DNA from: Patescibacteria group bacterium
GTDB taxonomy: Bacteria; Patescibacteriota; Minisyncoccia; Minisyncoccales; RBG-13-36-15
Length of the DNA stretch: 64,000 nt
Direction of reading: 5' to 3'
Assembly (NCBI GenBank): GCA_018609195.1
Contig: JAHCSE010000004.1
Coordinates: 8,474 to 72,473 of the forward strand
The position numbers and the translations under genes are program-made. A model generated the notes under the pieces. It was not told the DNA's origin. It made no database searches and worked only from the letters and a program-made list of their open reading frames with translations. Numbering within the stretch: position 1 is the stretch's first letter; the number at the start of each line of letters is the position of its first letter. Shown here piece by piece: positions 7,944 to 60,684 of the stretch.

Positions 7944-8492
7944 ATGGAAAAACAATATTCTAAAAAATCATTTACTATTATTGAACTAATCGTCGTTATA
8001 AGTATTATCATTATTATCTCAGGAATAGTTTTGGTTAATTATGGGGCAGGCCAAAAGCAACTTAATCTTCAAAGGTCAACTTCCAAATTAGCTCAGGATA
8101 TCAGAAGAGTCCAAGAAATGACAATGTCAGCGAAAGAATGTACTCATCCTACGGTATGCCCCGCAGGAGGGGTTCCTCCGGGAGGATACGGTATTTATTT
8201 TAACAAAGACGTAAAAGACAGTTATATTATTTATGCTGACATTAGTTCTCCGAATGAACAGCGGAATCCGGGAGGAGAAGAGGATATCGAAACTATTTCT
8301 TTGGGAAAAGAGGTGGAAATTGACTCCGTTACTCCCCCTAAAGCGAGTATAAATTTTAAGCCTCCTGATCCAATAGTAAGACTAAAAAATGAAGCCGGTA
8401 TTAATCAATCAAATGTAACAATAATTTTAAGAGCTGATTCCAACACTAAAACCATTCAAGTCAATAAAGTTGGCCGAATTGATATAGACTAA
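7944..8492 (+). CDS. minor pilin / pseudopilin (FimT/GspH-like position)
   Basis: 182 aa. N-terminal KSFTIIELIVVISIIIIISGIVL prepilin-type motif. Confidence 0.7.
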   Translation: MEKQYSKKSFTIIELIVVISIIIIISGIVLVNYGAGQKQLNLQRSTSKLAQDIRRVQEMTMSAKECTHPTVCPAGGVPPGGYGIYFNKDVKDSYIIYADISSPNEQRNPGGEEDIETISLGKEVEIDSVTPPKASINFKPPDPIVRLKNEAGINQSNVTIILRADSNTKTIQVNKVGRIDID

Positions 8493-10188: not shown

Positions 10189-10330
10189 AGAGAACATAGG
10201 CCTCGTTACACTCGGCACTATGTTCTTTAGACACCCACGGTTTCTAACGTTTTCGTCCCTCGTTTCACTCAGGACGAAAGCCTGTTTTCCTACACGGAGA
10301 GATACCCAATCTCCCCGACCCCCTCTGTGC
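10189..10330 (+). repeat. structured repeat family, copy A (ligA leader)
   Basis: Contains TTAGACACC-CAC-GGTTTCTAA, hairpin TTCGTCC/GGACGAA, GAAAGCCTGTTTTCCTACACGG, hairpin GGAGAT-accca-ATCTCC and CCGACCCCC. The blocks are in the same order as in copies B-D. Confidence 0.8.
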
Positions 10331-10364
10331 TGTATCGAAATTATTGAAATTCCGATACAAAAAT

Positions 10365-12488
10365 ATGACAAAATCCGAAGCCAAAAAGAGGATTGAGAGA
10401 TTAAAAAAGCTAATCAATCACCATCGCTATCTCTATCACGTTTTGGATAAACAGGAGATTTCTCCTTCAGCTTTAGATTCTCTCAAAAAGGAGCTCTTTG
10501 ATTTGGAGCAAGAATATCCAGAATTTATTACCCTTGATTCTCCTACCCAGAGAATTGGGGGAGAACCCTTGGAAAAATTTAAGAAAGTGAGACACCTTAC
10601 TCCGATGTTATCTTTCAATGATGCTTTCTCTGAAAAAGATATGACCGATTGGCAAGATCGAATTTCAAAACTTTTAACTGATAAAGAGCAGCAAAAAATT
10701 GATTTTTTTTGTGAGTTAAAAATTGATGGGTTAGCTATTGAATTGATTTACAATAATGGAATTTTAAAAACAGGTTCAACGCGAGGAGATGGGATAATTG
10801 GGGAGGATGTCACTCAGAATCTAAAAACCATAGAGGCCATTCCTTTAAGACTAAGAGAAAAAGATGAAATTTTAAAAGATCTAAAAAAACTTAATCTTTC
10901 CCAAACTACCCGCCAGAGGCGAGGCTCGCCAGGGGCGGCCAACTACCAATTACCAGCTACTATTGTCGTCCGGGGAGAGATTTTTATTTCAAAAAAAGAA
11001 TTTGAGAAGTTAAATAAGGAAAGAAAAAAAGGGGGATTGACGCTCTATGCCAATCCAAGAAATGTGGCAGCAGGCTCGATTCGACAATTGGATCCGAAAG
11101 TGACCACTAAAAGGCATCTTGACTCGATTACTTATGATTTAGTTTCAGATCTTGGCCAGAAAACTCATGAGGAAGAACACCAGATTTTAAAAACCCTTGG
11201 ATTCAAGATCAACCTCCATAATAAATATTACAAAAATCTATCAGAAGTTTTTAAATTTCATAAATTTTGGCAAAAAGAGAGGGGAAATATTCCCTATGAG
11301 ATTGATGGGATAGTAGTTATGGTTAATCCAAATCAAATTTTTGAAAAATTAGGAGTGGTGGGAAAAGCTCCCCGGGGGGCAATAGCTTTCAAATTTGCCC
11401 TAAAACAGGCCACCACGAAAATTGAAGATATCAAAGTTCAGATTGGGAGGACTGGGGCTTTGACTCCAGTTGCTTATTTAAAACCTGTGAAAGTGGGAGG
11501 GGTGACTATTTCAAGAGCTACTTTGCACAATGAAGATGAAATAAAAAGACTGGGCGTGAAAATTGGCGATACCGTCATTGTAGGTCGGGCGGGGGACGTC
11601 ATTCCAGATATTATCAAAGTCTTGCCCGAATTAAGAACAGGCAGAGAAGAGGCCTTTCAAATGCCAAGAAAATGCCCAGCTTGTGGCAAAAAAGTGGTAA
11701 AACCTGAGGGGGAGGTGATGTCTCGCTGTGAAAATCCTAAATGCTTTGCCCAGCTGAGAAGATATTTTTACCATTTCATTTCAAAGGGGGCTTTTGATAT
11801 CGTTGGCCTTGGCCCAAAAATTATTGATAAATTAATTGATGCAGGATTAGCTTCAGATCCAGCCGACCTCTTTAAATTAGAAATAGGAGATATTTTGCCC
11901 TTGGAAAGCCTGCCCCGTAGGAAGCCGAAGGCTTTCATTCGGGGATTTGCTGAAAAATCAGCTCAAAATTTAATTTCAGCTATTCAATCACGGAAAAAAA
12001 TTACGCTATCTAAATTAATTTATGTTTTGGGAATTAGAAATGTTGGGGAAGAGACCGCGATAGATTTAGCTCAGCACTTCAAGAATTTAGAAAATTTAAA
12101 AAAGGCAAGGGTTGAGAATTTAGAGAGAGTAAAAGATATTGGTCCTGTCGTAGCCGAATCAATTTATGACTGGTTTCATCAAAAAAGAAATTTGCAATTT
12201 CTAAAGAAGTTGGAGGAAGCAGAAGTAAGAATAGAGAAACCTGAGGTGAAAGCGAAGAAGTTAAAACTTAAAGGATTGACTTTTGTTTTCACTGGCATCC
12301 TGGAGAGCATCACCAGAGATGAAGCGAAAGAAAAAATCAGAGAATTGGGAGGAAAAGTTTCTGAATCAGTATCCAAAAAGACGAATTATGTTATTTTCGG
12401 CAAAGAACCGGGATCGAAATATGAAAAGGCAAAAAAACTAAGCCTCAAGACAATAGGGGAACAGGAATTTCTAAAAATGATTAAATAG
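10365..12488 (+). CDS. ligA: NAD-dependent DNA ligase LigA
   Basis: Adenylation motif CELKIDGLA, Zn finger CPACG...C...C, HhH region, C-terminal BRCT (LTFVFTGIL...). The ORF track starts at TTG 10344 inside a hairpin; ATG 10365 (MTKSEAKKRI) is preferred. Confidence 0.92.
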   Translation: MTKSEAKKRIERLKKLINHHRYLYHVLDKQEISPSALDSLKKELFDLEQEYPEFITLDSPTQRIGGEPLEKFKKVRHLTPMLSFNDAFSEKDMTDWQDRISKLLTDKEQQKIDFFCELKIDGLAIELIYNNGILKTGSTRGDGIIGEDVTQNLKTIEAIPLRLREKDEILKDLKKLNLSQTTRQRRGSPGAANYQLPATIVVRGEIFISKKEFEKLNKERKKGGLTLYANPRNVAAGSIRQLDPKVTTKRHLDSITYDLVSDLGQKTHEEEHQILKTLGFKINLHNKYYKNLSEVFKFHKFWQKERGNIPYEIDGIVVMVNPNQIFEKLGVVGKAPRGAIAFKFALKQATTKIEDIKVQIGRTGALTPVAYLKPVKVGGVTISRATLHNEDEIKRLGVKIGDTVIVGRAGDVIPDIIKVLPELRTGREEAFQMPRKCPACGKKVVKPEGEVMSRCENPKCFAQLRRYFYHFISKGAFDIVGLGPKIIDKLIDAGLASDPADLFKLEIGDILPLESLPRRKPKAFIRGFAEKSAQNLISAIQSRKKITLSKLIYVLGIRNVGEETAIDLAQHFKNLENLKKARVENLERVKDIGPVVAESIYDWFHQKRNLQFLKKLEEAEVRIEKPEVKAKKLKLKGLTFVFTGILESITRDEAKEKIRELGGKVSESVSKKTNYVIFGKEPGSKYEKAKKLSLKTIGEQEFLKMIK
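10911..10940 (+). repeat. GC-rich palindromic mini-insertion in ligA (encodes RQRRGSPGAA)
   Basis: cgccagaggcgaggctcgccaggggcggcc. Its reverse complement shares an exact 22-mer, GCCGCCCCTGGCGAGCCTCGCC, with 34564-34585 in ychF. Confidence 0.8.
11904..11944 (+). repeat. second GC-rich palindromic mini-insertion in ligA
   Basis: GAAAGCC...GGCTTTC and CCCCG...CGGGG nested stems. Encodes SLPRRKPKAFIR just before the conserved GFAEKSAQNL. Confidence 0.65.
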
Positions 12489-14526: not shown

Positions 14527-17379
14527 ATGAATAATAAAGAAGAATCAAAATATATTTCTCTTCAGGAAGCTACAAAATACTGTTCCTATTCTCAGGATTA
14601 TTTATCTTTGCTGGCGAGAACCGGAAAATTGAAGTCAGTAAAGATTGGCAGGAATTGGGTGACTACCAAAGAATGGATTGAGGAATATATAGAAAGAGTG
14701 AAAGAGTTTAATAATTATAATCGGTTACCCAAAAAGAATCTCATCAGGGTTGAAGTTAAATTCGAGGAAGAGGAAATCTCAGAAAGTCCGTCCCCATTAT
14801 CTGAGTCTTCAGAGGACACTTCACCTTTTCAAGAGTTGCCAAAAGTTAGACAACCAGAGCAAGCCCCCCTCCTTATTTTAGCTTTTGCCCTGGTTTTTGT
14901 TTTACTGATAGCTGCCGGAATTTTTGGTAAAGAGAATTTCAAAAATGCTTTTCAACAGATCGATCCTTATGTAACAGCAATTAATCAAGAAGTTGATGAA
15001 GGAATTGTCCAAGGATGGAAAGGGATTCAGAAAGGGGTTCAGGGGATTGGTGGAGCTGGAGATTTTGTTTTTGAAGGGGCAGCTAAATCTTTTGAAGAAA
15101 GTTTTGTTACGGTCTCTAGGGATGCTTATCAATTCTCCCGGGAAGCTGTTTCCATGTTTGGAGAAATTACGGTTCTCGGTTCAGTAGGGGCTAATCAATT
15201 AGCTGAGGTTTCTCAGGAAATTCCAAAATCAATTTTGGAATCGATAAAAAACATTGGCCAATCAATAGGCCAAGGAACAAAAAATATGGCCTCTGGTATT
15301 AGTTCTCGGCTCTCAGGTTTGGCTCAATTCGTCAGCCAGCTTTTCAAAAGAGAAACACTGGTTAAAGTAGAAAAAGAAGTAATACCCGAAGAGTTAGAAA
15401 AAGAAATTGCTAAATTGGCAGATGAGATTGGAAAATTAAAACTGAGAGGATTTCCAGAAAAAGGTCCTCAAGGTCCTCAAGGTTCGCCTGGACCTCCTGG
15501 TCCTCAAGGTCTCTCCGGGCCTCAGGGCCCCACTGGTCCTCAAGGTCCCTCGGGCCCTCCAGGACCCTCTGGGCCTCAAGGAGTGGCAACTCTAGCTGCA
15601 CGTTTTGCAAATTTAAGCACCAATACCGTTTCCATCGGAGGTAATTTTGATTCTCTCAACATAGGAAGAGGGAATCTTACCGTTGATTCAGCTGGAAGTC
15701 TTACTACCTCAGGTTCTCTTACTGTTTCAGGAACAATTACAGAAGGAGGAACCTCCCTAACCTCCAAATATATTGGTATTCCCTCAGGCTCTACTCAGGG
15801 AGATGTTCTCTATTACAGTGGGGCTGCTTGGGCAAGATTAGCAGCAGGGAGCTCTGGCCAATTTTTACAAACCCAAGGTTCCGGAGCTAATCCTGTTTGG
15901 GCAACAGTAACTTCTGGTTCTACTCTCTGGACAGACGGAGGCACTGTAACTTATCTAACCGCAATCTCTGATGATCTGGCCCTGGGAGGAACTGATTCCA
16001 CTGCTCCCTTCTTCATGGATGTTTCAACTGGGAGCCTGGCACTCACTGGTTCTCTCACCGGAACCGTCCTCAACTTAACTGGTCTCACCAACCAGATTGT
16101 TTTAGATTCAGACGGAACAAACACTGGAACCTTAACCATGGCTTCTCTTTCTGCTTCAAGAACCTGGACCTTACCTAATGCTACCGGCACTGTGATCACC
16201 GCAGGAAACCTCACTGATATCACTTCTGTTACCGGGTTAAACACCCAAAATGCCCTCCAACTTGGTCCCTTCGGTTCCTCAGCAGGAAACACAGGAGAGA
16301 TCAGGTTCTTAGAACTTGCTGCCAGTGGTACTAACTATGTAGGATTTAAAGCTCCTGATGCCATTACCACCAATGTAATTTGGACTCTTCCTGCAGCAGA
16401 TGGCACAGCAGATCAGGTCTTATCCACTAATAGTTCAGGAGTTCTCTCCTGGGCTACTGCCGGAGGTCTCTTTACTGATGGCGGAACCACCACCTATCTG
16501 ACCTCAACCACTGATGATTTAGCCCTTGGAGGCACAGATTCCACTGCTCCCTTCTTCATGGATGTTTCAACTGGGAATTTGACTCTCACAGGTGATCTTG
16601 CTGTCAACGGTGGGGATATTACTTCAACTGGCGCACTTACAATCACGCCTGGAGCTGGAACCAACTTCAATATTGCTCTTTCAACCACTGGAGATTTTGC
16701 CGTCAACACCAATCAACTCTTTGTTGATACCTCAACCGGCCGCGTCGGCATCGGGACGGCGAGTCCAGCCTTCAAACTTGATGTGTTAGGCAGTATCAGA
16801 GCCTCGGACGCCTTTCTGTTCTTCGACGGCTCCACTCAAGCTATGGCAAGCACTCCCAGTGGATTTTCCTGGCGTGTCACTACAGCTTCCTTCCTCCAGT
16901 TATTTAACGTAGCAGGAGAGGAAACAAATCCCCGAGGCGTTTTCTTCAAGCCTGACGGAACAAAGATGTATATTATAGGACTTATTGGTGATGATGTCAA
17001 TGAATATAACTTGTCAACTCCCTGGGATGTCTCAACTGCTTCGTTCCTCCAGTTATTTAGCGTATCAGGAGAGGAAACAGTCCCTACAGGCGTTTTCTTC
17101 AAGCCAGACGGAACAAAGATGTATGTTATAGGGTCTACTGGTGATGACGTCAATGAATATAACTTATCAACTCCCTGGGATGTCTTAACAGCTTCGTTCA
17201 ACCAGTTATTTAGCGTGGCAGGAGAGGAAACAGTCCCTACAGGCCTCTTCTTCAAGCCAGACGGAACAAAGATGTATGTTATAGGGCAAAGTGGTGTTGA
17301 TGTCAATGAATATAACTTATCAACTCCCTGGAATGTCTTAACAGCTTCGTTCCTCCAGTTATTTAGCGTATTAGGATAG
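14527..17379 (+). CDS. giant surface-fibre protein, N-terminal part (HTH, TM, collagen-like, tail-fibre-like repeats, 51-aa repeats); ends at in-frame TAG
   Basis: 950 codons. N-terminal excisionase-type HTH ([46 protein letters not shown]), TM helix [22 protein letters not shown], 13 G-X-Y triplets, repeated [16 protein letters not shown] blocks. Confidence 0.85.
15463..15579 (+). repeat. collagen-like G-X-Y tract (13 triplets)
   Basis: [39 protein letters not shown], read in the gene frame. Confidence 0.9.
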
Positions 17380-17634
17380 GAAATAGTCCCTACAGGCGTT
17401 TTCTTCAAGCCAGACGGAACAAAGATGTATGTTATAGGGACTGCTGGTGATGAGGTCAATGAATATAACTTATCAACTCCCTGGGATGTCTTAACTGCTT
17501 CGTTCAACCAGTTATTTAGCGTGGCAGGAGAGGACACAGCCCCTACAGGCGTTTTCTTCAAGCCAGACGGAACAAAGATGTATGTTATAGGAGATAATGA
17601 TGATGATGTCAATGAATATGACTTAGGCCTTATC
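16870..17634 (+). repeat. five tandem 153-nt (51-codon) repeats inside the giant gene
   Basis: Units start at 16870, 17023, 17176, 17329 and 17482. Consensus W[DN][43 protein letters not shown]. Confidence 0.9.
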
Positions 17635-19395
17635 ATAGAAGGCAACGTCGGCATTGGGACGACGGGGCCGGGGTCCAAATTAGATGTTACTACCAACTCT
17701 CTGGGCATTACCCAGACTAATACTTCTGGCCTGGCTCTGGTCAATACCACTGCTGCTGCAGCTGGGTTGCAGCAGATATCCCCAGCTCTAAGGTGGAGAG
17801 GGTTTGGCTGGAAAACCGGTGGTCCTAACCCTGCTAGTCAGTCAGTCGACTTTAGATCTTTCGTGAGGCCAATTCAAGGAGCAGCCGCTCCCACGGGTGG
17901 ATTAGATTTTCAAAGCAGTATTAATGGTGGAGCTTACAGTGACTTGTTGACGATTTTAAGCACGGGCAACGTCGGCATCGGGACGGCGAGTCCTATAAAA
18001 AAACTCTCAGTCGCCGGTAAATTTTATTCACACAAAGACGCTGATATCACAGCCAGAAATTACCTCACTGATAATTCCTGGGTCTCCAGAACTTCAGCCG
18101 CTGACAATAGTTGGTTTGCCATAACCTGGTCTCCGGAGCTTGGCCTGTTCGCCGCCGTAGCTGACTCCGGCACAGACAACCGGGTCATGACCTCTCCAGA
18201 CGGCATTACCTGGACAATCAGAACTTCAGCCGCTGACAATGATTGGCTTGGCATAACCTGGTCTCCGGAGCTTGGCCTGTTCGCCGCCGTAGCTGCCACT
18301 GGCACAGGCAACAGGGTCATGACCTCGGTCAGCTCAAAATTGTCGCCTATGGTGAGCGTAGTAGCTGCTACGGACGACCGCGAAACTTTGTGTATAGCTA
18401 TCGGTGGCGGTGTTGTTACTAGAGATGCCGCAGGCAATGACTGCGACATTTCCTCTGCACGCTTCAAATATAATATTGAGGAACTTGATATTAACGGCAT
18501 TGACATCGTGAATTCTTTTAAACCTTCGTCCTTTATTAAAAATTCTGATAAGACAAACAGAATACAATGGGGATTTATTGCTGAAAATATTGCGGTAAGC
18601 AACCCACACCTTGCTTTGTATGACGAAGATGGTCTTCCGTATTCAATATCAAAGTATGGAATTATGGCGGTACTCGCCAAATCCATTCAAGAAATCTCCC
18701 AGCGCATAGATCTAACAGAAGAAAGCTTGGCATTCTTACAGCCTGACAGCCAACAGCCAGAAGGAGATTCTTTACTTGATGGTTTTGTTCAAAAAATAAA
18801 ACAAGCCTTAGCTTCCCTGGGGCTCGTAATTGAAAATGGAATTTTACAGGTTCAGAAATTAGTCGCAGGTGTTATAGAGACCGAAAATTTGAAAGTGGGA
18901 AGCCCAGAGAAGCCAACTGGCGTTACTCTCTATGATGAGGTGAGTGGTCAGTCATATTGTATTAAGATACGAAACGGGCAGATGGTAAGTTATGAGGGAG
19001 AATGCCAAGCAGGAAACCCTTCTGACCAAGCACTAACTGAAGAGCCGCCGGTTGAACAATCACCAGTAGAGCCATCTTCTACCGAACCACCTCCCACTGA
19101 GCCCCCGGTAGAGCCATCTCCAGCTGAGGAACCTTCAGGAGAACAACCCCCCACTGAAGAGCCTACGATTGAAGAACCACCAGCTGGACAAGAACCTCTG
19201 GTTGAAGAACCGCCAATAGGGGAGCCTCCATTAGAAGAACCACTTGCTGGAGAATCACCACCTACTGAGGAGCCACCAATTGAGGAACCACCTCCTTTAG
19301 AAGAACCACCAGCTGAGGAGGAACCTCCAGCTGAGGAACCCATAGTTGAAGAACCAGTTGTTGAGGAACCTGTTCTGGAGGAGCCAGCTGAATAA
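17425..19395 (+). CDS. giant surface-fibre protein, C-terminal part (same frame as 14527..17379; frame open from 17380)
   Basis: 656 codons. Contains VGIGT..P..KL.V tail-fibre motifs, two BNR/Asp-box-containing repeats (SPDGITW), an S74-type intramolecular chaperone signature (SSARFKYNIEEL...WGFIAENI) and a P/E-rich tail. Confidence 0.8.
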   Translation: MYVIGTAGDEVNEYNLSTPWDVLTASFNQLFSVAGEDTAPTGVFFKPDGTKMYVIGDNDDDVNEYDLGLIIEGNVGIGTTGPGSKLDVTTNSLGITQTNTSGLALVNTTAAAAGLQQISPALRWRGFGWKTGGPNPASQSVDFRSFVRPIQGAAAPTGGLDFQSSINGGAYSDLLTILSTGNVGIGTASPIKKLSVAGKFYSHKDADITARNYLTDNSWVSRTSAADNSWFAITWSPELGLFAAVADSGTDNRVMTSPDGITWTIRTSAADNDWLGITWSPELGLFAAVAATGTGNRVMTSVSSKLSPMVSVVAATDDRETLCIAIGGGVVTRDAAGNDCDISSARFKYNIEELDINGIDIVNSFKPSSFIKNSDKTNRIQWGFIAENIAVSNPHLALYDEDGLPYSISKYGIMAVLAKSIQEISQRIDLTEESLAFLQPDSQQPEGDSLLDGFVQKIKQALASLGLVIENGILQVQKLVAGVIETENLKVGSPEKPTGVTLYDEVSGQSYCIKIRNGQMVSYEGECQAGNPSDQALTEEPPVEQSPVEPSSTEPPPTEPPVEPSPAEEPSGEQPPTEEPTIEEPPAGQEPLVEEPPIGEPPLEEPLAGESPPTEEPPIEEPPPLEEPPAEEEPPAEEPIVEEPVVEEPVLEEPAE

Positions 19396-25700: not shown

Positions 25701-26112
25701 TACAGTTGGGTATATTTACATGATGAAATTAATCCATATGGTGACAGATAAAATCCATATGCGCTCCATTGGTCCTTATTCTTTAATTACCCAGCAACCT
25801 TTGGGAGGGAAAGCCCAGTTTGGAGGACAGAGATTTGGAGAAATGGAAGTCTGGGCTTTAGAAGGGCATGGAGCTGCCAGTACTCTTCAGGAAATGTTGA
25901 CTATTAAATCTGATGATGTTCCAGGAAGAGCCGCTACCTATGAAGCAATCTTGAAAGGAGAACTAATAAAACCTCCCAGTCTGCCCGCTTCCTTTAATTT
26001 ACTAATCAGTGAATTAAAATCCCTTGGATTAAATGTAGAAGTGAAGGAGAAACCACCGCAAGAAAAATCCGAAATTCGAAATCCTAAATTCGAAACAAAT
26101 CCTAAATTATAA
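22753..26112 (+). CDS. rpoB: DNA-directed RNA polymerase subunit beta
   Basis: Conserved blocks include FMDNENPLAELEHKRRLSATGPGGL, GDKLTGRHGNKGVVS and QRFGEMEVWALE. ATG 22753 is preferred over TTG 22744. Confidence 0.95.
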   Translation: MEIKIKNFGKSKISLFPSYLLETQKESWKIFWERDLKELFSEISPIRDYTKKELELWFLDYKLDQPRYKSDFEAKQNNDSYEAPLRAKTKLVNLKTKEIKEQEVFLTDFPLMTDRGTFIVNGVERVVISQLIRSPGVFFTSQLISGKNYFGAKIIPNRGAWLEFETEGSGLIGVKIDRKRKLPVTTLLRALGIDKDAQIIDLFQDVDRDPELSFIKETLQRDLTHNQAEALVEIYKRLRPGDLVTPETARELIENMFFNFERYDLSKVGRWRMGQRLPKLEEKTRRGKPVLKKKEKIRGHSAEGIRQAHRPEFTEGLSRSLGNPGEEGISIEDRVLKPEDIVETLREIIKLNNTAEAKPDQIDHLGSRRVRVLSEFLQNRLRVGLMRMERIIKDRMSTLDLATLAPVQLINPRPFMAVVKEFFTNSQIAQFMDNENPLAELEHKRRLSATGPGGLTRERAGFEVRDVQPSHYGRICPIQTPEGPNIGLVGHLASFAKINPYGFLEAPYFKVEKGKVTSEIRYLNAYEEEKYNIVPAGISIGEKGDILEPKVEARIKGEPGQIEKEKIDFIDVSSTQSISVATSLIPFLQNDDANRALMGSNMQRQAVPLINPEIPFVCTGMEEKVAQDSGQEIVSEGEGQVEEVDGEKITVLYKTPKKNRKTYQLKTFFRTNQYTCFHQRAIVKKGRMVKKGEILADGAAISRGYLALGKNILVAFLPWRGGNFEDAILISERLVKDDIFTSIHIDDFSCDIRETKLGPEITTADIPNVGEERLKDLDEEGIVRIGAEVEPNDILVGKISPKGETDLTAEERLLRAIFGEKAREVKDTSLRMEHGKKGRVTEVKIWEREKGVKLEPGVIKRIQVEVAEIRKIQAGDKLTGRHGNKGVVSKVLPDEEMPFLEDGTPVDIILNPLSVVSRMNVGQVLETHLGLAAKKLGYIAISPALAGATEEDIKEELKTASLSEDGKFTLYDGRSGEPFEEKITVGYIYMMKLIHMVTDKIHMRSIGPYSLITQQPLGGKAQFGGQRFGEMEVWALEGHGAASTLQEMLTIKSDDVPGRAATYEAILKGELIKPPSLPASFNLLISELKSLGLNVEVKEKPPQEKSEIRNPKFETNPKL
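23651..23716 (+). repeat. GC-rich mini-insertion in rpoB (encodes about SAEGIRQAHRPEFTEGLSRSLG)
   Basis: Locally GC-rich with TTCGAC...GTCGAA pairing. Shares the 15-mer CATTCGACAAGCTCA (23664-23678) with the intergenic palindrome at 59149-59163. Confidence 0.7.
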
Positions 26113-26192
26113 TGTTCCAAACGTGTTTGGGATTTGGAAAATTAGAAAATTCGAATTTGTTTAGGATTTAGATATTAGAATTTAGAATTTTA
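26066..26192. repeat. AT-rich word-palindrome element, copy 1 (rpoB 3' end to rpoC start)
   Basis: Left words aaatccgaaattcgaaatcctaaattcgaaacaaatcctaaa, centre CCAAAC-gt-GTTTGG, right words ttcgaatttgtttaggatttagatattagaatttagaa. Homologous to 60556-60684. Confidence 0.8.
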
Positions 26193-34472: not shown

Positions 34473-35540
34473 TTATATCTTAAACTCAATTACATCCCCG
34501 TCTTCCACAACATGATCTTTCCCTACTATTTTTAGCCATCCCAGTTCCCGGGTTCTTGGCCAAGCCGCCCCTGGCGAGCCTCGCCCTTCGAGGCGGGAAC
34601 CCGCCTCTATTAATTTGTCCCAACTAATTACTTCAGCCTTTATGAATTTTCCCTCAAAGTCAGAATGGACTTTTCCCCCTGCTTCTGGGGCCCTGCTTCC
34701 TTTCATTACAGTCCAAGCTCTTGTTTCTTTTCCCCCAGCTATCGTATAAAAAGTAATGAGGTCAAGAATATCGTAGCATTTTAAAATAAGCTGGTCAAGG
34801 GAACTTGAAATTTCAAGCTCTTTTAATTCTGAAGGATTTAATTCAGAGATTTCCTCTTCTATTTTGAGATTAAGGGGAATGAAATTTTCTCCTTTAAATT
34901 CAACATTCTTTTGATTAATATTTAAGACCAACACTTTTGGTTTTGCAGTTAAAAATTGGTATTCTTGAATTTCTGATTTTTCTTCTTCGGTTAAATCAAG
35001 ATCTGCAATTAACTTTCCTTCAGATACCGAAGCTTTAATTTTTTCGAAGATACCGATTTTTTTTAAAGCAATTTTACTTGAGGATTTGGCATCTTTTTCA
35101 AGTTTTTTTATTAAATTTTCTAATGTTTCTAAATCCTTCATTAAAAGTTCAACCTTTATTATCTCAATTTCTTTTTCTGGATTAATCTCTCCAAGAACAT
35201 TTTCAACTTCAGGATCGTTAAAGGTTCTCACCACCTCTAAAATGGCATCACAATTTCTGATATGGGCCAAAAATTGATTTCCTAGACCCTCTCCTTTGTG
35301 AGCTCCTTTCACTAAACCTGCAATATCAATAAATTCAATAACAGTGGGAGTGACCTTCTCCGGTTTAATAATTTCAGCAATTTTTTCTAATCTTTCATCA
35401 GGGACAATAACTACTCCAACATTAGGATGGATAGTAGTGAAAGGGTAGGCAGCAATATCAATTTTCTTTTTGGTTAAAGCTTTAAATAAAGTTGATTTGC
35501 CGACATTAGGTAAACCGACAATACCTATTGAAAAACTCAT
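34473..35540 (-). CDS. ychF: ribosome-binding ATPase YchF
   Basis: 355 aa. G1 GLPNVGKSTLFKALT, DIAGLVKGAHKGEGLGNQFL, C-terminal TGS-like VVEDGDVIEFKI. Confidence 0.9.
   Translation of the reverse strand: MSFSIGIVGLPNVGKSTLFKALTKKKIDIAAYPFTTIHPNVGVVIVPDERLEKIAEIIKPEKVTPTVIEFIDIAGLVKGAHKGEGLGNQFLAHIRNCDAILEVVRTFNDPEVENVLGEINPEKEIEIIKVELLMKDLETLENLIKKLEKDAKSSSKIALKKIGIFEKIKASVSEGKLIADLDLTEEEKSEIQEYQFLTAKPKVLVLNINQKNVEFKGENFIPLNLKIEEEISELNPSELKELEISSSLDQLILKCYDILDLITFYTIAGGKETRAWTVMKGSRAPEAGGKVHSDFEGKFIKAEVISWDKLIEAGSRLEGRGSPGAAWPRTRELGWLKIVGKDHVVEDGDVIEFKI
34548..34604 (-). repeat. GC-rich nested-palindrome mini-insertion in ychF (57 nt, encodes about RLEGRGSPGAAWPRTRE)
   Basis: CGGGTTC...GAACCCG, TTGGCCAA, CCGCC...GGCGG, GGCGAG-c-CTCGCC. 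Contains the exact 22-mer shared with ligA. Confidence 0.8.
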
Positions 35541-39425: not shown

Positions 39426-39607
39426 TGTACCAATTCGTCGCTCGCCCTCATCCAGCCTTACGGCTGGCCCGAGCACATAAATTATGTGCTCGGTTCGGGC
39501 TCGCTCCCCAGACACCCTCGGTTTCTGGCGTTCGTCGCTTCGCTCCTCACTGTTTTCCTACACGGGAAAACACCCAGTTTTCCCGACCCCTTTCTGAAGA
39601 ATGGTAC
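39426..39607 (+). repeat. structured repeat family, copy B
   Basis: 5' domain with hairpins CCAGCCTTACGGCTGG and CGAGCACATAA-at-TTATGTGCTCG. Then CCAGACACC-ctc-GGTTTCTGG, CTGTTTTCCTACACGG, GGGAAAAC-accca-GTTTTCCC and CCGACCCC. Ends pair as TGTACCA / TGGTACA. Confidence 0.85.
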
Positions 39608-42272: not shown

Positions 42273-43628
42273 TTAATACCCAATCAAGGCCTTCCTTCTT
42301 AGTTTTCTATGGTAGCTTATTGCAAAACGGTGGGCTTCATCTCTCAGTTGTAAAATGAGATTGAAAATTGGGCGAGAAAGAATTTTTAGTAAAATGGGCT
42401 TCTTTCTGTTTTCTACATAAAGCTCATTTTTTCTCTTAGCTAAAGCTAAGACGCTGATTTTTGCTGATTTTAAGACTGATTTTCGCTGATATTTCTTAAG
42501 AACCTGTAAAGCTGCATTTAATTGGGCCTTGCCGCCATCAATTAACATTACATCTGGAAAAGGCCATTCAATATGCCTGAGCCTTCTTGATAAAATTTCT
42601 TTGAGCATTGCAATATCATTGGGTTTCTCCTCAATTTTTATTTTAAATTTCCGATAAAAATTTTTATCTGGCATGCCTTTTACAAATGTAACCATTGAAC
42701 CAGTAGCTTGTTTCCCTTGAATATTAGAGACATCATAGGCTTCAATTCGGGAAATTTGTTTCTTTGTTTTGAGAAGATTTTGCAGGATTTTTTGAATATC
42801 AGACCAATCTTTTTCTGGCATCAATTTTTCTTCCTTAAATATTTTAGCATGAGCAAAGACATTTTCCAAAGCTCTTATTTGATCTCTTATTTTAGCTGCC
42901 TTTTCAAAATCTTGGACTGAGCTTAAAAATTTCATTTCTTTTTTGAGGGTTCTTAAAACCGATTTTCTTTTCCCCTTCAAAACACTGATTACATATTTGA
43001 TATTTTTCCTGTATTCTTTTATATCAGGATCAGGCCCCGGACAAAGCCCTAAATTGCAATAAACACAGGGAGTTTTCGTGTGCGTTTTTGAGGTGTAGTA
43101 AGGGAAAACTCTCCTGAGAAATCGTAAAGTAAGCTTCAGCGGTCTCCCTATAACAAAAGGACCAATATAAATAGCTTTTGGGCTTGCCCGCCTAGTCCCG
43201 CCTCTTTTGGAAAGGGGCGGGATTTGGGTGGGTTGATGAGTGATAAAAATTCTTGGTAAATTTTCCTTTGTAATACCAATGTAAAAAAATTTTTTGTCAT
43301 CCCGCCAGATGACATTATATTTTGGCTGGTATTTTTTAATTAAATTTGCCTCTAAAATTAAAGCCTCAATTTCTGAGTCAGTTTTGAGGTATCCTACTTT
43401 TTGGACAAGATTTAAGAAAAGATTATCTCGAAAGCCTGGGTGTTGAAAATGATTCTTCACCCTTTCTCGGATATTTGAGGCCTTCCCAATATATAAGAAC
43501 CTTGACTTCGTCAAGAACCTTGAATGCTCCGCATTTAAAAATTCTCTACCTTGCTTAAAGGCATAAACCCCAGGACTTTTTGGCAAAATTTTAATGTTAT
43601 TTTTTGTGATGAATTTAAATTTCTCCAT
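42273..43628 (-). CDS. uvrC: excinuclease ABC subunit C (short form without C-terminal HhH2)
   Basis: 451 aa. GIY-YIG N-terminus (PGVYAF...LYIGKASNIRERVKNHF), UVR motif QDFEKAAKIRDQIRALENV, endonuclease domain ending RDEAHRFAISYHRKLR. Confidence 0.88.
   Translation of the reverse strand: MEKFKFITKNNIKILPKSPGVYAFKQGREFLNAEHSRFLTKSRFLYIGKASNIRERVKNHFQHPGFRDNLFLNLVQKVGYLKTDSEIEALILEANLIKKYQPKYNVIWRDDKKFFYIGITKENLPRIFITHQPTQIPPLSKRGGTRRASPKAIYIGPFVIGRPLKLTLRFLRRVFPYYTSKTHTKTPCVYCNLGLCPGPDPDIKEYRKNIKYVISVLKGKRKSVLRTLKKEMKFLSSVQDFEKAAKIRDQIRALENVFAHAKIFKEEKLMPEKDWSDIQKILQNLLKTKKQISRIEAYDVSNIQGKQATGSMVTFVKGMPDKNFYRKFKIKIEEKPNDIAMLKEILSRRLRHIEWPFPDVMLIDGGKAQLNAALQVLKKYQRKSVLKSAKISVLALAKRKNELYVENRKKPILLKILSRPIFNLILQLRDEAHRFAISYHRKLRRKALIGY
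43180..43232 (-). repeat. GC-rich palindromic mini-insertion in uvrC
   Basis: Plus-strand gggcttgcccgcctagtCCCGCCtcttttggaaagGGCGGGatttgggtgggt. Encodes about PPLSKRGGTRRASPK. Confidence 0.65.
43495..43523 (-). repeat. 18-nt-period direct duplication inside the GIY-YIG motif of uvrC
   Basis: AAGAACCTTGA cttcgtc AAGAACCTTGA on the plus strand, with palindrome CTTGAC-ttc-GTCAAG. Protein reads SRFLTKSRFL. Confidence 0.7.
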
Positions 43629-45840: not shown

Positions 45841-46047
45841 CTCAATATGCCTGAGTCGCGGCACGCGACACTTACCTTCGGCAAGTGCGCTATCACCGCT
45901 CCTTAGAAACCCACGGTTTCTAAGTATCACCCCAAATTCGCTTGCGCTAGAATTTGGGGACCCCGATTTTGGCGAAAGCCTGTTTTCCTTCACGGGAAAA
46001 CGCCCACTGTTCACACACAGCCCAGTTTTCCCGACCCCTTTCTCATT
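45841..46047 (+). repeat. structured repeat family, copy C (uvrA leader)
   Basis: Hairpins GTCGCG-gca-CGCGAC and CACTTACC-ttcg-GCAAGTG. Then TTAGAAACC-cac-GGTTTCTAA, CCCCAAATTC...GAATTTGGGG, GAAAGCCTGTTTTCCTTCACGG, GGGAAAAC-(23-nt loop)-GTTTTCCC and CCGACCCC. Confidence 0.85.
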
Positions 46048-49327: not shown

Positions 49328-51153
<1,826 letters not shown>

Positions 51154-54123: not shown

Positions 54124-55179
54124 ATGGGGGTTTCTTTAAAAGAAAAAATGTTTTTTGCTGAACATTTATCCTTAATGATTAAAGGAGGGATTCCAATATC
54201 TGAGGCTTTGGAAATTTTAAAGTCCGAAGCTAAATCTAGAGGACTGAAAAGGGCTTTAAACGATATTTTAAAAAGAGTTTTGGAAGGGGAGAGATTAGAG
54301 AAGAGTTTTGAAAAGCATCCTCGAATTTTTGATAGATTTTTCAGAAATATAGTTCGGGTAGGAGAAGAATCAGGAACCTTAGAAGAGAATTTACGATATT
54401 TGGCTTCGCAAATTCAGAAGGACTATGAGTTAAAAAGAAAAGTGGTAGGGGCTTTACTCTATCCTCTCTTAGTCCTTGTTTTAGCTACTGTCATTATTTC
54501 GGTAGTCACCTTTTTTGTTATACCAAAGATAACTCCCCTTTTTCAGGCTCTGCCGCAAGCGGAGGCGGGGCTACCCTTCGCTACGGAAATTTTAATTTCC
54601 CTTTCCTCTTTTTTAAAACAGTTTTGGTTTTTAATAATCGCAGCTTTTATTTTCTTTGTCGTAATTTTTAAAATTTTGCAGAAAATAAGATTTATTAAAT
54701 TTTATTTTGATAAAATAAGCCTTTCTTTACCGTTTTTTGGTCAAATGTATAAAAATCTCGCGCTATCCAGGTTTTCTCGAAATCTATATACACTTTTGGG
54801 GAGTGGAATGCCAATTTTGGAAGCTCTGGAAATTTGCGCAGATTCGCTTCCAAATGAAATTCACAAAAGGAATGTAATGAAAGTGAGAGCAGGAGTAGAA
54901 AGGGGAGAAAAGATAAGTTCTGGTCTCAGAAAAAATCCCCAAAATTTCCCTCCGATTTTCTCAGAAATGGTCTTGGTAGGAGAGAAAACAGGTTCCCTAG
55001 AAGAAAGCCTTCTGTATCTCGCTGAATTTTATGAAAAAGAATTTGATACTACAATAAAAAATCTCTCGGGGTTGTTGGAACCTGTATTATTAATATTCGT
55101 TGGAATTTTTGTTGCCTTTGTGGCTTTCGCTATCATCACCCCAATTTATCAATTTACCTCTGGCCTCCGTATTCGTTAA
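54124..55179 (+). CDS. second PilC/GspF-family platform protein
   Basis: 351 aa. Duplicated GspF-type domains and 3 TM helices. Shorter N-terminus than the locus-1 PilC. Confidence 0.85.
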   Translation: MGVSLKEKMFFAEHLSLMIKGGIPISEALEILKSEAKSRGLKRALNDILKRVLEGERLEKSFEKHPRIFDRFFRNIVRVGEESGTLEENLRYLASQIQKDYELKRKVVGALLYPLLVLVLATVIISVVTFFVIPKITPLFQALPQAEAGLPFATEILISLSSFLKQFWFLIIAAFIFFVVIFKILQKIRFIKFYFDKISLSLPFFGQMYKNLALSRFSRNLYTLLGSGMPILEALEICADSLPNEIHKRNVMKVRAGVERGEKISSGLRKNPQNFPPIFSEMVLVGEKTGSLEESLLYLAEFYEKEFDTTIKNLSGLLEPVLLIFVGIFVAFVAFAIITPIYQFTSGLRIR

Positions 55180-59929: not shown

Positions 59930-60559
59930 GTGGAAGCAATTTTTACGATCCTTATTGCCTTAACCATTATTGTTTTGTGGGTAAGCGGCCTTTTTGGGAA
60001 AATTAGTTGGGCGATTAATTTACCGGTAATCGGCCTTTTGTTAATCTTTTGGCTTGTTTTTCTTTATAATACCTTGGTTAAATTAAGAACGAGAGTGAGG
60101 GAAGCTTGGGCAGATATTGATGTCCAGTTGAAAAGGAGATATAACTTAATCCCAAATTTAGTTGAGACGGCCAAGGGGTATGCTGCCCATGAAAAAGAGG
60201 TTTTTGAAAAAGTTACGGAAGCTAGAACTAAAGCAATGGGAGCTCAAACCCCAGCTGAGCATACGAAAGCAGAAAATATGTTAACAGGCGCTCTTAAGAC
60301 CCTCTTTGCCGTTTCTGAAAATTATCCTCAATTGCGAGCTTCAGAGAATTTTTTGGAACTACAAAGAGAACTCCGTGATACCGAAGATAAAGTTCAAGCT
60401 GCCAGGAGATTTTATAACAGTAATGTCCGTGAATACAATATCAAAATTCAAAGCTTACCAGATAAAGTAATTGCCAGCCTTTTTAGATTCAAAAGAGAAG
60501 AATTTTTTGAACTAGAAGAGGAAACAGCAGCCAGAGAATCAGTCAAGGTCAAATTCTAA
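59930..60559 (+). CDS. lemA: LemA family protein
   Basis: 209 aa, GTG start. [47 protein letters not shown] is typical of LemA. Confidence 0.85.
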
Positions 60560-60684
60560 ATCCGAAATTCTAAATTCTAAACAAATTCCAAATTCGAAAT
60601 CACAAATTCTAAACCGTTTGAGATTTGGGAAATTGGGGTTTAGATATTGTTTAGGATTTCGTGCTTAGGATTTAGGATTTTAGG
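60556..60684. repeat. AT-rich word-palindrome element, copy 2 (lemA-htpX spacer)
   Basis: Shares AAATCCGAAATT, TTTAGATATT and GTTTAGGATTT with copy 1 at 26066-26192. Confidence 0.8.

Follow-up and report, generated by a model that had tools for sequence, protein, structure and literature searches.

Results

Two copies of a GC-rich hairpin in ligA and ychF

We analyzed a stretch of 64,000 nucleotides from a Patescibacteria group bacterium (contig JAHCSE010000004.1, positions 8,474 to 72,473 of the forward strand), referred to below as the window, in which two genes each contain a short GC-rich palindrome. The first gene is ligA, encoding NAD-dependent DNA ligase (10344..12488, + strand), recognized by its open reading frame (ORF) and a PDB match to E. 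coli LigA. The second is ychF, encoding a ribosome-binding ATPase (34473..35540, − strand), recognized by its ORF and homologues. The window is AT-rich, with a GC content of 37%, and judging by its gene content and nearest homologues the genome is a Parcubacteria/Nealsonbacteria-like member of the Patescibacteria.

According to the initial annotation, ligA and ychF share an identical 22-nt GC-rich block, which has like orientation and frame in the two genes and is read as RGSPGAA in both proteins. The block was found exactly at both positions, and orientation, frame and peptide were confirmed on the ORF translations. The 22-mer GCCGCCCCTGGCGAGCCTCGCC has two exact sites in the window, 10918-10939 (−) and 34564-34585 (+), there is no third site in the window even with up to 3 mismatches, and its count was 0 across 100 dinucleotide-preserving shuffles of the window. 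On the + strand, the letters at 10909-10940 are CCCGCCAGAGGCGAGGCTCGCCAGGGGCGGCC.

We observed that the block common to both copies exceeds 22 nt, as CCCGCC is also present 5' in each. In coding sense the layout of both is CCCGCC - spacer - GGCGAGGCTCGCC - AGG - GGCGG - C, and the 5' spacer is AGA (3 nt) in the ligA copy and TCGAAG (6 nt) in the ychF copy. The copy in ligA (10909..10939 including the terminal C, + strand) therefore reads CCCGCC-AGA-GGCGAGGCTCGCC-AGG-GGCGG-C, and the copy in ychF (34564..34597 including the terminal C, − strand) reads CCCGCC-TCGAAG-GGCGAGGCTCGCC-AGG-GGCGG-C. The units are 30 nt (10909-10938) and 33 nt (34565-34597) long. The 3' loop AGG occurs in both window copies, compared with 3% of unbiased metagenome copies. 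Since this rare loop is common to the two, we place them in one sub-lineage, which is consistent with copying inside this genome lineage.

The nested stems described for the ligA copy are present in the predicted RNA fold, where an outer stem of 5 bp opens into a 3x3 internal loop, followed by an inner stem of 5 bp that is capped by a 3-nt loop (−17.5 kcal/mol as RNA). The z-score of the fold energy against shuffles was just −1.3, because any sequence equally GC-rich folds well. In ychF, the insert begins with 8 nt (CCCGCCTC) that complement the native codons GAG GCG GG (E A G; 34600..34607, − strand), and in the minimum-free-energy fold of 34558-34612 (minus strand) the two form an alternative 7-bp hairpin.

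The insert in LigA

The LigA ORF (714 amino acids) reads TTRQRRGSPGAANY across the element, and its best match in the PDB was E. coli LigA (E = 6e-162). The insert, RQRRGSPGAA, comprises residues 190-199 in the adenylation domain and aligns with residues 160-163 of E. coli LigA. Relative to E. coli, the window protein has approximately 28 additional residues between those two positions, most of which form a clade-wide AT-encoded segment (REKEEVIKDLEKEG LKE IAENIKK KGLK). RQRRGSPGAA itself is private to the window LigA: in an alignment of the 120 closest homologues, window protein included, it was missing from 119 of the 119 others. The nearest empty ligA site (P0004, locus L155) reads CTT AAT TTT TCA CCC TAT A/CC AAG TAC CAG, with the slash at the junction, and the filled site of the window reads CTT AAT CTT TCC CAA ACT A[CC CGC ... 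GCG G]CC AAC TAC CAA. The net gain against L155 is exactly 30 nt, and the junction is ambiguous only by CC. The same LigA protein with the insert was carried by four sources.

We used an AlphaFold model of LigA (mean pLDDT 74.9) to locate the insert. Residues 186-200, which hold it, were modelled as coil with pLDDT<50, flanked by a helix (173-182) and a strand (206-214), both confident. The model thus suggests that the insert occupies a permissive site. The initial annotation had asked whether the inserts fall in surface loops, and to this extent the LigA model favours it; the YchF model, with a mean pLDDT of 47, was too poor for use.

The insert in YchF and its recurrently filled site

The copy in ychF adds 11 residues, RLEGRGSPGAA, after a conserved EAGS in the C-terminal domain, so that the protein reads EGRGSPGAAWP. 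Thermus thermophilus YchF (PDB 2dby) aligns there as EAG-----------GWARAKERGW against EAGSRLEGRGSPGAAWPRTRELGW in the window, with an 11-residue gap. The site was empty (EAGS-W, with nothing between) in 118 of 120 close sequences, the window among the 120. Solved YchF homologues differ in length at this position, and from this length variation we place the insert, putatively, in a surface loop. YchF identical to that of the window, insert included, was present on contigs of four independent assemblies (ENA, two JGI samples and Logan) made with different pipelines, one of them a 750-kb contig.

Four YchF genes were filled after the same Ser codon: that of the window, Curtissbacteria L030 (RPDGRGSPGAA), L071 (RPEGEARHMAA) and P0178 (RPVKLGEARHEGTA), the last detected by protein similarity only. 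All four kept GGT TCC CGC C and the 13-nt core, and their spacers differ. In L071 the core is displaced by 1 nt and the frame is restored via the second spacer; P0178 retains only a decayed 3' arm, GGGACGG, with CCCGCC and the 13-nt core intact. The filled genes are not mutual nearest relatives, as the best homologues of the window YchF (72% identity) are empty and P0178, at 67%, is filled. Filling of the same codon in four lineages calls for a preferred site, for loss that is precise, or for recombination through the conserved flanks that passes on the filled allele. Equivalent residues in distant orthologues had been named as the finding that would speak against an insertion. We found filled sites only in a few Patescibacteria YchF, with the same DNA element, which supports insertion. 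In both genes, the comparison with orthologues establishes the blocks as inserts.

Size and distribution of the family

The initial annotation had considered that the match might be unique to ligA and ychF. We searched one genome per species with the 21-mer GGCGAGGCTCGCCAGGGGCGG, and metagenomes (JGI) with the relaxed pattern CCCGCC N1-9 core N1-5 GGCGG. The genome scan returned 29 loci with the 21-mer, approximately 24 of them in AT-rich metagenome-assembled genomes (MAGs), and the metagenome scan returned at least 120 stretches; a family thus exists. Each of the approximately 24 AT-rich loci also has CCCGCC and three bases directly 5', though the pattern did not demand it. Five matches in contigs of 56-71% GC had no 5' CCCGCC and were used as chance controls. 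Both scans demanded intact stems, and any measure of stem conservation from them is biased accordingly. Among the genome and metagenome matches listed there were at least 146 unique copies, which the copy statistics cover; 124 are in contigs below 55% GC, and the median GC of the host contigs was 0.42. A fuzzy search of 1 Mb of loci added approximately 6 copies with 1-2 stem mismatches, too few for covariation analysis.

Within the Patescibacteria, carriers were found in Paceibacterota, Moranii-, Portnoy-, Staskawicz-, Uhr-, Davies- and Curtissbacteria and in Saccharibacteria. Further carriers are three Melainabacteria MAGs, one of them labelled Caenarcanales, a Melainabacteria order. At one locus (L022) the host gene is recG, and the nearest named homologues of its product are from Melainabacteria, Gastranaerophilales and Vampirovibrio; a segment of approximately 55 residues containing two copies was missing from 49 of 49 aligned orthologues. 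Labels of Gammaproteobacteria and Chlamydiae on some other carrier MAGs are unverified. One such copy lies in a MAG labelled 'uncultured Gammaproteobacteria' (L009, contig CAYRKM010000001.1, 835 kb, GC 0.38); we regard the label as doubtful and did not use it as evidence for a third phylum.

Host genes were recognized by eye from the flanking peptides. They include genes for GAPDH, TrmD, Mur ligase, ROK kinase, the synthetases CysRS, ThrRS, LeuRS and GluRS, RadA, SSB, QueA and an EndoIII-like glycosylase; RecG alone was confirmed by homologue comparison. Among 2.9 million viral contigs (IMG/VR) there were 0 matches to either the 21-mer or the relaxed pattern, and PLSDB plasmids gave nothing of substance, with one partial chance match in a GC-rich replicon. 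Rfam returned no match to the element region at E<=10, and for the whole window at gathering score it returned two tRNAs only. Our search of the literature, subscription-only papers excepted, turned up no account of this kind of element for either Patescibacteria or Melainabacteria. In summary, the matches establish membership of the two blocks in a large, apparently undescribed mini-palindrome family in uncultivated bacteria of at least two phyla.

Length, frame and translation

Copies share the unit C-CCGCC-N3-GGCGAG-G-CTCGCC-N3-GGCGG-C, whose insertion adds a net 30 nt, or 33-36 nt where the spacers are longer. The lengths of 152 tabulated copies were 30 nt in 93, 33 nt in 47, 36 nt in 5 and other values in 7. 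Ninety of 124 listed copies (approximately 73%) lie within open frames of at least 150 amino acids, and 10 are clearly non-coding; the coding fraction is close to the one that coding density would give if insertion were indiscriminate. All 90 listed coding copies are 30, 33 or 36 nt long, that is, multiples of three, with the spacer pairs (3,3), (6,3), (5,4), (4,5), (7,2) and (9,3). Off-frame spacer sums of 7, 8 or 10 occurred exclusively outside clear ORFs (4/34; Fisher p = 0.005).

We did not find a stop codon in any of the six frames of the element. Three sense frames are in use (PxxGEARQGR, xRQRRGSPxAA and PPxARLAxGG), and the opposite strand is read too: by the apex-base convention, 51 coding copies are sense and 39 antisense. 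Since all frames and both strands are used and lengths are multiples of three, the peptide is incidental, copies are translated through, and it is the nucleic-acid hairpin that is conserved. RGSPGAA, the peptide noted in the initial annotation, is thus a by-product of DNA that is read elsewhere in three frames and on both strands. The sequences establish that the element is translated as 10-12 additional residues at tolerant positions, and they indicate that the constraint acts at the nucleic-acid level (DNA or RNA) and not at the peptide level. Removal from RNA in the manner of a bulge-helix-bulge type intron was rejected: the bulges are opposite and not staggered, and coding copies all keep the frame.

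The loop triplets are purine-rich on the coding strand in either orientation of the element. We attribute this to AT pressure together with selection for hydrophilic loop codons, an account that covers incompletely the mirror loop sets such as GAA/AAG and CTT/TTC, with five copies each.

Boundaries, heptamers and composite copies

The base after GGCGG was C in 119 of 121 listed copies (98%), T was preferred at −1, and the downstream consensus was C-A-(A/G). The conserved unit is 31 nt and the net gain 30 nt; therefore one C is shared with the target. At the empty sites that could be resolved (ligA and ychF), we found no duplication of the target of at least 2 bp. In 17 of 120 listed copies (approximately 14%, versus 0.9% in mismatched-pair controls) the 7-nt flanks matched each other at 6 or more of 7 positions. 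The ligA copy is among them, with CAAACTA before and CCAACTA after the hairpin. Heptamer units around copies include CATGCCT, CAATCCT, CAATTTC and CACGCTT, and they were found in Melainabacteria as well.

A 7-bp target-site duplication was considered and ruled out. The gains at the resolved sites are exactly 30 and 33 nt, the hairpin often lies inside a longer tandem heptamer array, and the heptamer follows the loop variant across loci. In the Melainabacteria MAG nzgw193, CATGCCT pairs with GAA/AGG and CAATCCT with GGA/AGG, and at L101 CACGCTT goes with ACA/TTC in three copies, in an EndoIII-like gene and in queA. In some lineages, copying would then take in a larger composite in which the hairpin stands between heptamers. 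Copies were also found nested (..TCCGCC T CCCGCC..GGCGG CT GGCGGA..) or in tandem.

Tandem heptamers (CAGGAGA and CATGCCT; CACGCTT) are translated in frame with the hairpin at L022 1340-1545, in the Melainabacteria recG, and at L101 300-2250. These composite inserts of approximately 58-165 nt are missing from orthologues, and the same heptamer occurs at different loci of one genome. In the window, long AT-rich imperfect palindromes lie at 26064-26192 (the rpoB-rpoC spacer) and at 60550-60682 (downstream of the LemA gene). They are built of heptamer/octamer arrays (AAATTCG AAATCCT AAATTCT ... and the complement), like the arrays that flank hairpins in other genomes, with the hairpin absent.

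Other hairpins and repeats

A second in-frame insert, unrelated to the first, was found in the window LigA, PLE[SLPRRKPKAFIRG]FAEKSAQ (11907-11945, + strand), where most orthologues read PLER-FAEKSAQ. Its DNA, GAAAGCCTGCCCCGTAGGAAGCCGAAGGCTTTCATTCGGGGA, has the stems GAAAGCC/GGCTTTC and CCCCG/CGGGG. It occurs sporadically at the same site (approximately 10 of the first 45 aligned sequences), and in the model residues 522-533 are coil with pLDDT<50. Other Parcubacteria LigA have private in-frame GC hairpins of other families (L158, P0015; L159, P0065; L160, P0070), with energies of −27 to −55 kcal/mol: the 36-nt CCCGCCCGCCTTGCTTCGCAAGGCGAAGCGGGCGGG (PARLASQGEAGG), another hairpin of 36 nt that encodes APSRPAQRGSGG, and an insert of 90 nt. 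Hairpins with the CCGCC/GGCGG outer stem and other inner stems recur in the loci. From these sequences, decoration of housekeeping proteins with mini-hairpins looks general in the Parcubacteria group.

The DNA of the second LigA insert resembles part of an intergenic repeat of the window. This repeat, approximately 110-200 nt long, has four copies in both orientations: 10224-10322, upstream of ligA; 39434-39590, near tRNA-Leu; 45897-46020, upstream of uvrA; and 49368-49520, between groES and groEL. Its conserved blocks are TTAGAAACCGTGGGTTTCTAA (palindromic), GAAAGCCTGTTTTCCTACACGGGGAAAC and CCCCGACCCC, and it had no match in Rfam. In uvrC (42273-43628, − strand) a GC-rich hairpin, CCGCCTAGTCCCGCCTCTTTTGGAAAGGGGCGG at 43188-43220, encodes part of PTQIPPLSKRGGTRRASPKAIYIGPF in UvrC; it has CCGCC/GGCGG arms as in the element and a different interior.

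Two GC-rich islands were rejected as family members. The island at 8158-8182 is ordinary pilin-like sequence, and that at 54546-54576 corresponds to at most a 3-5-aa length difference from a paralogous PilC. The region 14527-19395 contains two large ORFs with internal repeats, namely GPQ collagen-like 9-nt repeats (15454-15581), a 153-nt tandem repeat in four copies (16868-17626) and PxEEP repeats (19024-19360). The second of these ORFs has a Peptidase_S74 (endosialidase chaperone) domain, and both are probably surface or fibre proteins.

Discussion

A probable selfish hairpin and the alternatives

We consider it probable that the two blocks represent one sub-lineage within a widespread family of tiny GC-rich hairpin repeats which colonise AT-rich genomes, are selfish and are moved in trans. 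In the initial annotation the blocks were read as a small palindromic element which enters ORFs and is tolerated there in frame, similar in concept to Rickettsia palindromic elements (RPEs), and the status of the blocks as inserts, the existence of a family and the in-frame copies support this proposal. Mobility we infer from the patchy distribution of the copies. The hairpin would be non-autonomous, and a structure-specific enzyme could act on its extruded or single-stranded form. Such an enzyme may resemble HUH/Y1 transposases of the RAYT (REP-associated tyrosine transposase) or IS200/IS605 type and would insert the hairpin beside a short target without duplication. After insertion, the spacer loops would drift to A-rich hydrophilic codons on the coding strand, with the stems left intact. 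We prefer HUH/Y1-like single-strand insertion over cut-and-paste because of the gain of exactly 30 nt, the one shared C, the strand-asymmetric ends and the lack of duplication.

Several observations weigh against a selfish hairpin moved in trans. We did not observe insertion/excision polymorphism between near-identical strains. A Pfam scan of 20 window ORFs detected pilus, two-component, UvrA, chaperonin and similar families and no transposase-like match, and no protein family was recurrent near copies in an all-against-all comparison of ORFs from the 8-kb genome loci. The tags GTAG/CGTC of repetitive extragenic palindromic (REP) sequences and their complements were not present in the 10-nt flanks, as assessed from position-frequency tables. 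The identical heptamer flanks that travel with the hairpin are unexplained by a simple 30-nt model, and the YchF codon occupied in four lineages calls for target specificity, precise loss or allele transfer. Finally, as both scans required intact stems, an unbiased measure of stem conservation is impossible, and the one copy found independently of the DNA pattern, in the YchF of P0178, has a decayed 3' arm.

Spread without a dedicated transposase, by host recombination and repair (template switching, or break repair from an ectopic copy, by way of GC-rich microhomology), is an explanation to which we give a minor chance. Between genomes it would involve DNA uptake and homologous recombination via the conserved sequence of the flanking gene. 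It would suit the YchF codon that is filled in lineages not forming a clade, where relatives at 72% identity are empty and P0178 at 67% is filled; also the partial copy in TrmD (L019), in which native YTRP codons serve as the CCCGCC arm, and the copy in CysRS (L061), where the native GGACGG/CCCGGA resembles the end-to-start junction of the element. Nested and tandem copies, the lack of a linked transposase in the 8-kb loci, and the richness of the window in type IV pilus genes, a kind able to serve DNA uptake, point the same way, as does the precedent of the yeast GC42 cluster, with conserved stems, variable loops, mergers and transfer through flanking homology (PMC4478555). However, the flanking genes of the carriers are just approximately 70% identical, which makes a poor substrate for homologous recombination, the empty sites of ligA and ychF have only 1-2 nt in common with the ends of the element, and the constant sharp ends and the fixed 30-nt quantum look enzymatic.

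We regard it as improbable that the hairpin is instead a functional cis-element (a bound RNA or DNA structure, an mRNA stabiliser or a translational pause) which is positively selected wherever it lands, its identity across phyla resulting from function and not from recent movement. Identical 24-nt stems in Patescibacteria and Melainabacteria would fit this, as would the 13-nt core intact in 4 of 4 YchF copies despite diverged and frame-shifted spacers, and the occurrence in the same genomes of a related architecture whose inner stem differs but is compensated (GGCGGA/TCCGCC). However, neither the host genes nor the positions are related, most copies are confined to one lineage, both orientations relative to transcription occur, the density is low (2 copies in 64 kb), Rfam has no match, and the hairpin is not a terminator, lacking a T-run after it; the search patterns themselves, as an ascertainment effect, largely account for the conservation of the stems. 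That the blocks are an artefact of assembly or adapters, or ordinary conserved residues of LigA and YchF, we can practically discount. All sources are short-read metagenome assemblies, but the same YchF protein came from four assemblies with different pipelines, the coding copies are all in frame and the spacers vary among copies; native residues would not be missing from 119/119 LigA, 118/120 YchF sequences and the solved structures.

Comparison with known repeats

Like RPEs and intragenic REPs, the family consists of short palindromes which lie between genes and in frame within ORFs that seem functional; the hosts include housekeeping and DNA-repair genes, and the inserts are thought to occupy permissive loops (PMC3733652). 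Intragenic REPs are known in several species, and for Opitutus terrae DNA ligase is named as a host (Di Nocera et al. 2013, PMC3733652). The in-frame copies of the element within intact ORFs are as expected of RPEs. RPE-1 is roughly 100-150 bp long, whereas the unit described here is 30-33 nt, and its hosts are Patescibacteria and Melainabacteria, with identical stems in both phyla. The likeness to RPEs is conceptual, and in view of its hosts we do not assign the family to them.

With REPs the element has in common a 30-33-nt imperfect GC-rich palindrome and a high number of copies across the collections, with 2 in the 64 kb of the window; however, the flanks lack the GTAG/CGTC tag, and most copies are intragenic while REPs are mostly extragenic. 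The REP/REPIN-RAYT and IS200/IS605-derived palindrome-associated elements are alike in having a single imperfect GC-rich hairpin and in inserting without target duplication beside a short target, and they are expected to be non-autonomous, as proposed here. RAYT genes are typically single copy. In contrast to these systems, there was no RAYT or TnpA near any copy (8-kb loci) or in the 20 window ORFs, no tetranucleotide that could act as guide or target is conserved outside the hairpin, and inverted REPIN dimers are not the rule. REP-RAYT systems are described as largely vertically inherited. Miniature inverted-repeat transposable elements, which are 50-500 bp long, have terminal inverted repeats derived from an insertion sequence and produce a target-site duplication, do not fit: the unit is 30-33 nt, the gains are exactly 30 and 33 nt with 1-2 nt at most shared with the target, and no parent insertion sequence was found for the element.

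Closest in concept, and by analogy closer than RPEs or intragenic REPs, appear to be the palindromic GC clusters of yeast mitochondria, with which we group the double-hairpin or repetitive hairpin elements of other mitochondria. GC42 is mostly intergenic, one yeast cluster lies in frame in var1/rps3, no transposase is known, and spread via recombination through flanking homology has been proposed for GC clusters (PMC4478555). Both are GC hairpins, 30-50 nt long, of a very AT-rich genome; they share conserved stems and variable loops, merged, nested and tandem copies, a sporadic occurrence at homologous sites, and very short or absent flanking repeats. Unlike the yeast clusters, which have AG/ACT flanking repeats, the element shares at most a single C with its target, resides in bacterial chromosomes and is mostly intragenic, and the sequences are unrelated.

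The short tandemly repeated repetitive (STRR) sequences of cyanobacteria are tandem heptamers, and the copies placed exactly between tandem heptamer units (approximately 14%) may resemble them in layout; STRRs are not known to flank a conserved hairpin or to occupy ORFs. An intrinsic terminator does not fit, as the T-run is absent downstream and most copies are inside ORFs. DNA uptake sequences (DUS/USS) are species-specific motifs at approximately 1 per kb, compared with 2 copies in 64 kb here (with 3 mismatches allowed), and the same motif occurs here across phyla. CRISPR repeats, which form regular arrays with unique spacers in between, do not fit either, as the copies are solitary and Rfam, including its CRISPR-DR families, gave no match.

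Significance of the family

More tentatively, and with doubt outweighing confidence, the family might represent the smallest mobile DNA in bacteria: a 29-31-nt hairpin which, by an unknown non-RAYT mechanism and perhaps via DNA uptake, would cross between Patescibacteria and Melainabacteria in groundwater and sediment and insert mainly into coding sequence in 30-nt quanta, and which with its sister families would form a general loop-insertion engine in reduced genomes.

Protein-coding palindromes were already known in Rickettsia, and intragenic REPs in several species (PMC3733652). What is new here is the wide occurrence of such inserts across the Candidate Phyla Radiation and in Melainabacteria, with a far smaller unit which is mostly intragenic. 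The element accounts for some odd loops rich in Arg/Gly/Pro/Ala that proteins of these organisms contain, and it calls for caution on the part of annotators and structure predictors, as such loops would be parasitic DNA and not lineage-specific functional motifs. Its copies also mark, in nature, where essential enzymes such as LigA, YchF, GAPDH, TrmD, several tRNA synthetases, RecG and QueA tolerate an insertion. The presence of identical stems in two phyla, with no visible transposase, raises a concrete question about the movement of very short DNA inside tiny genomes and from one to another.

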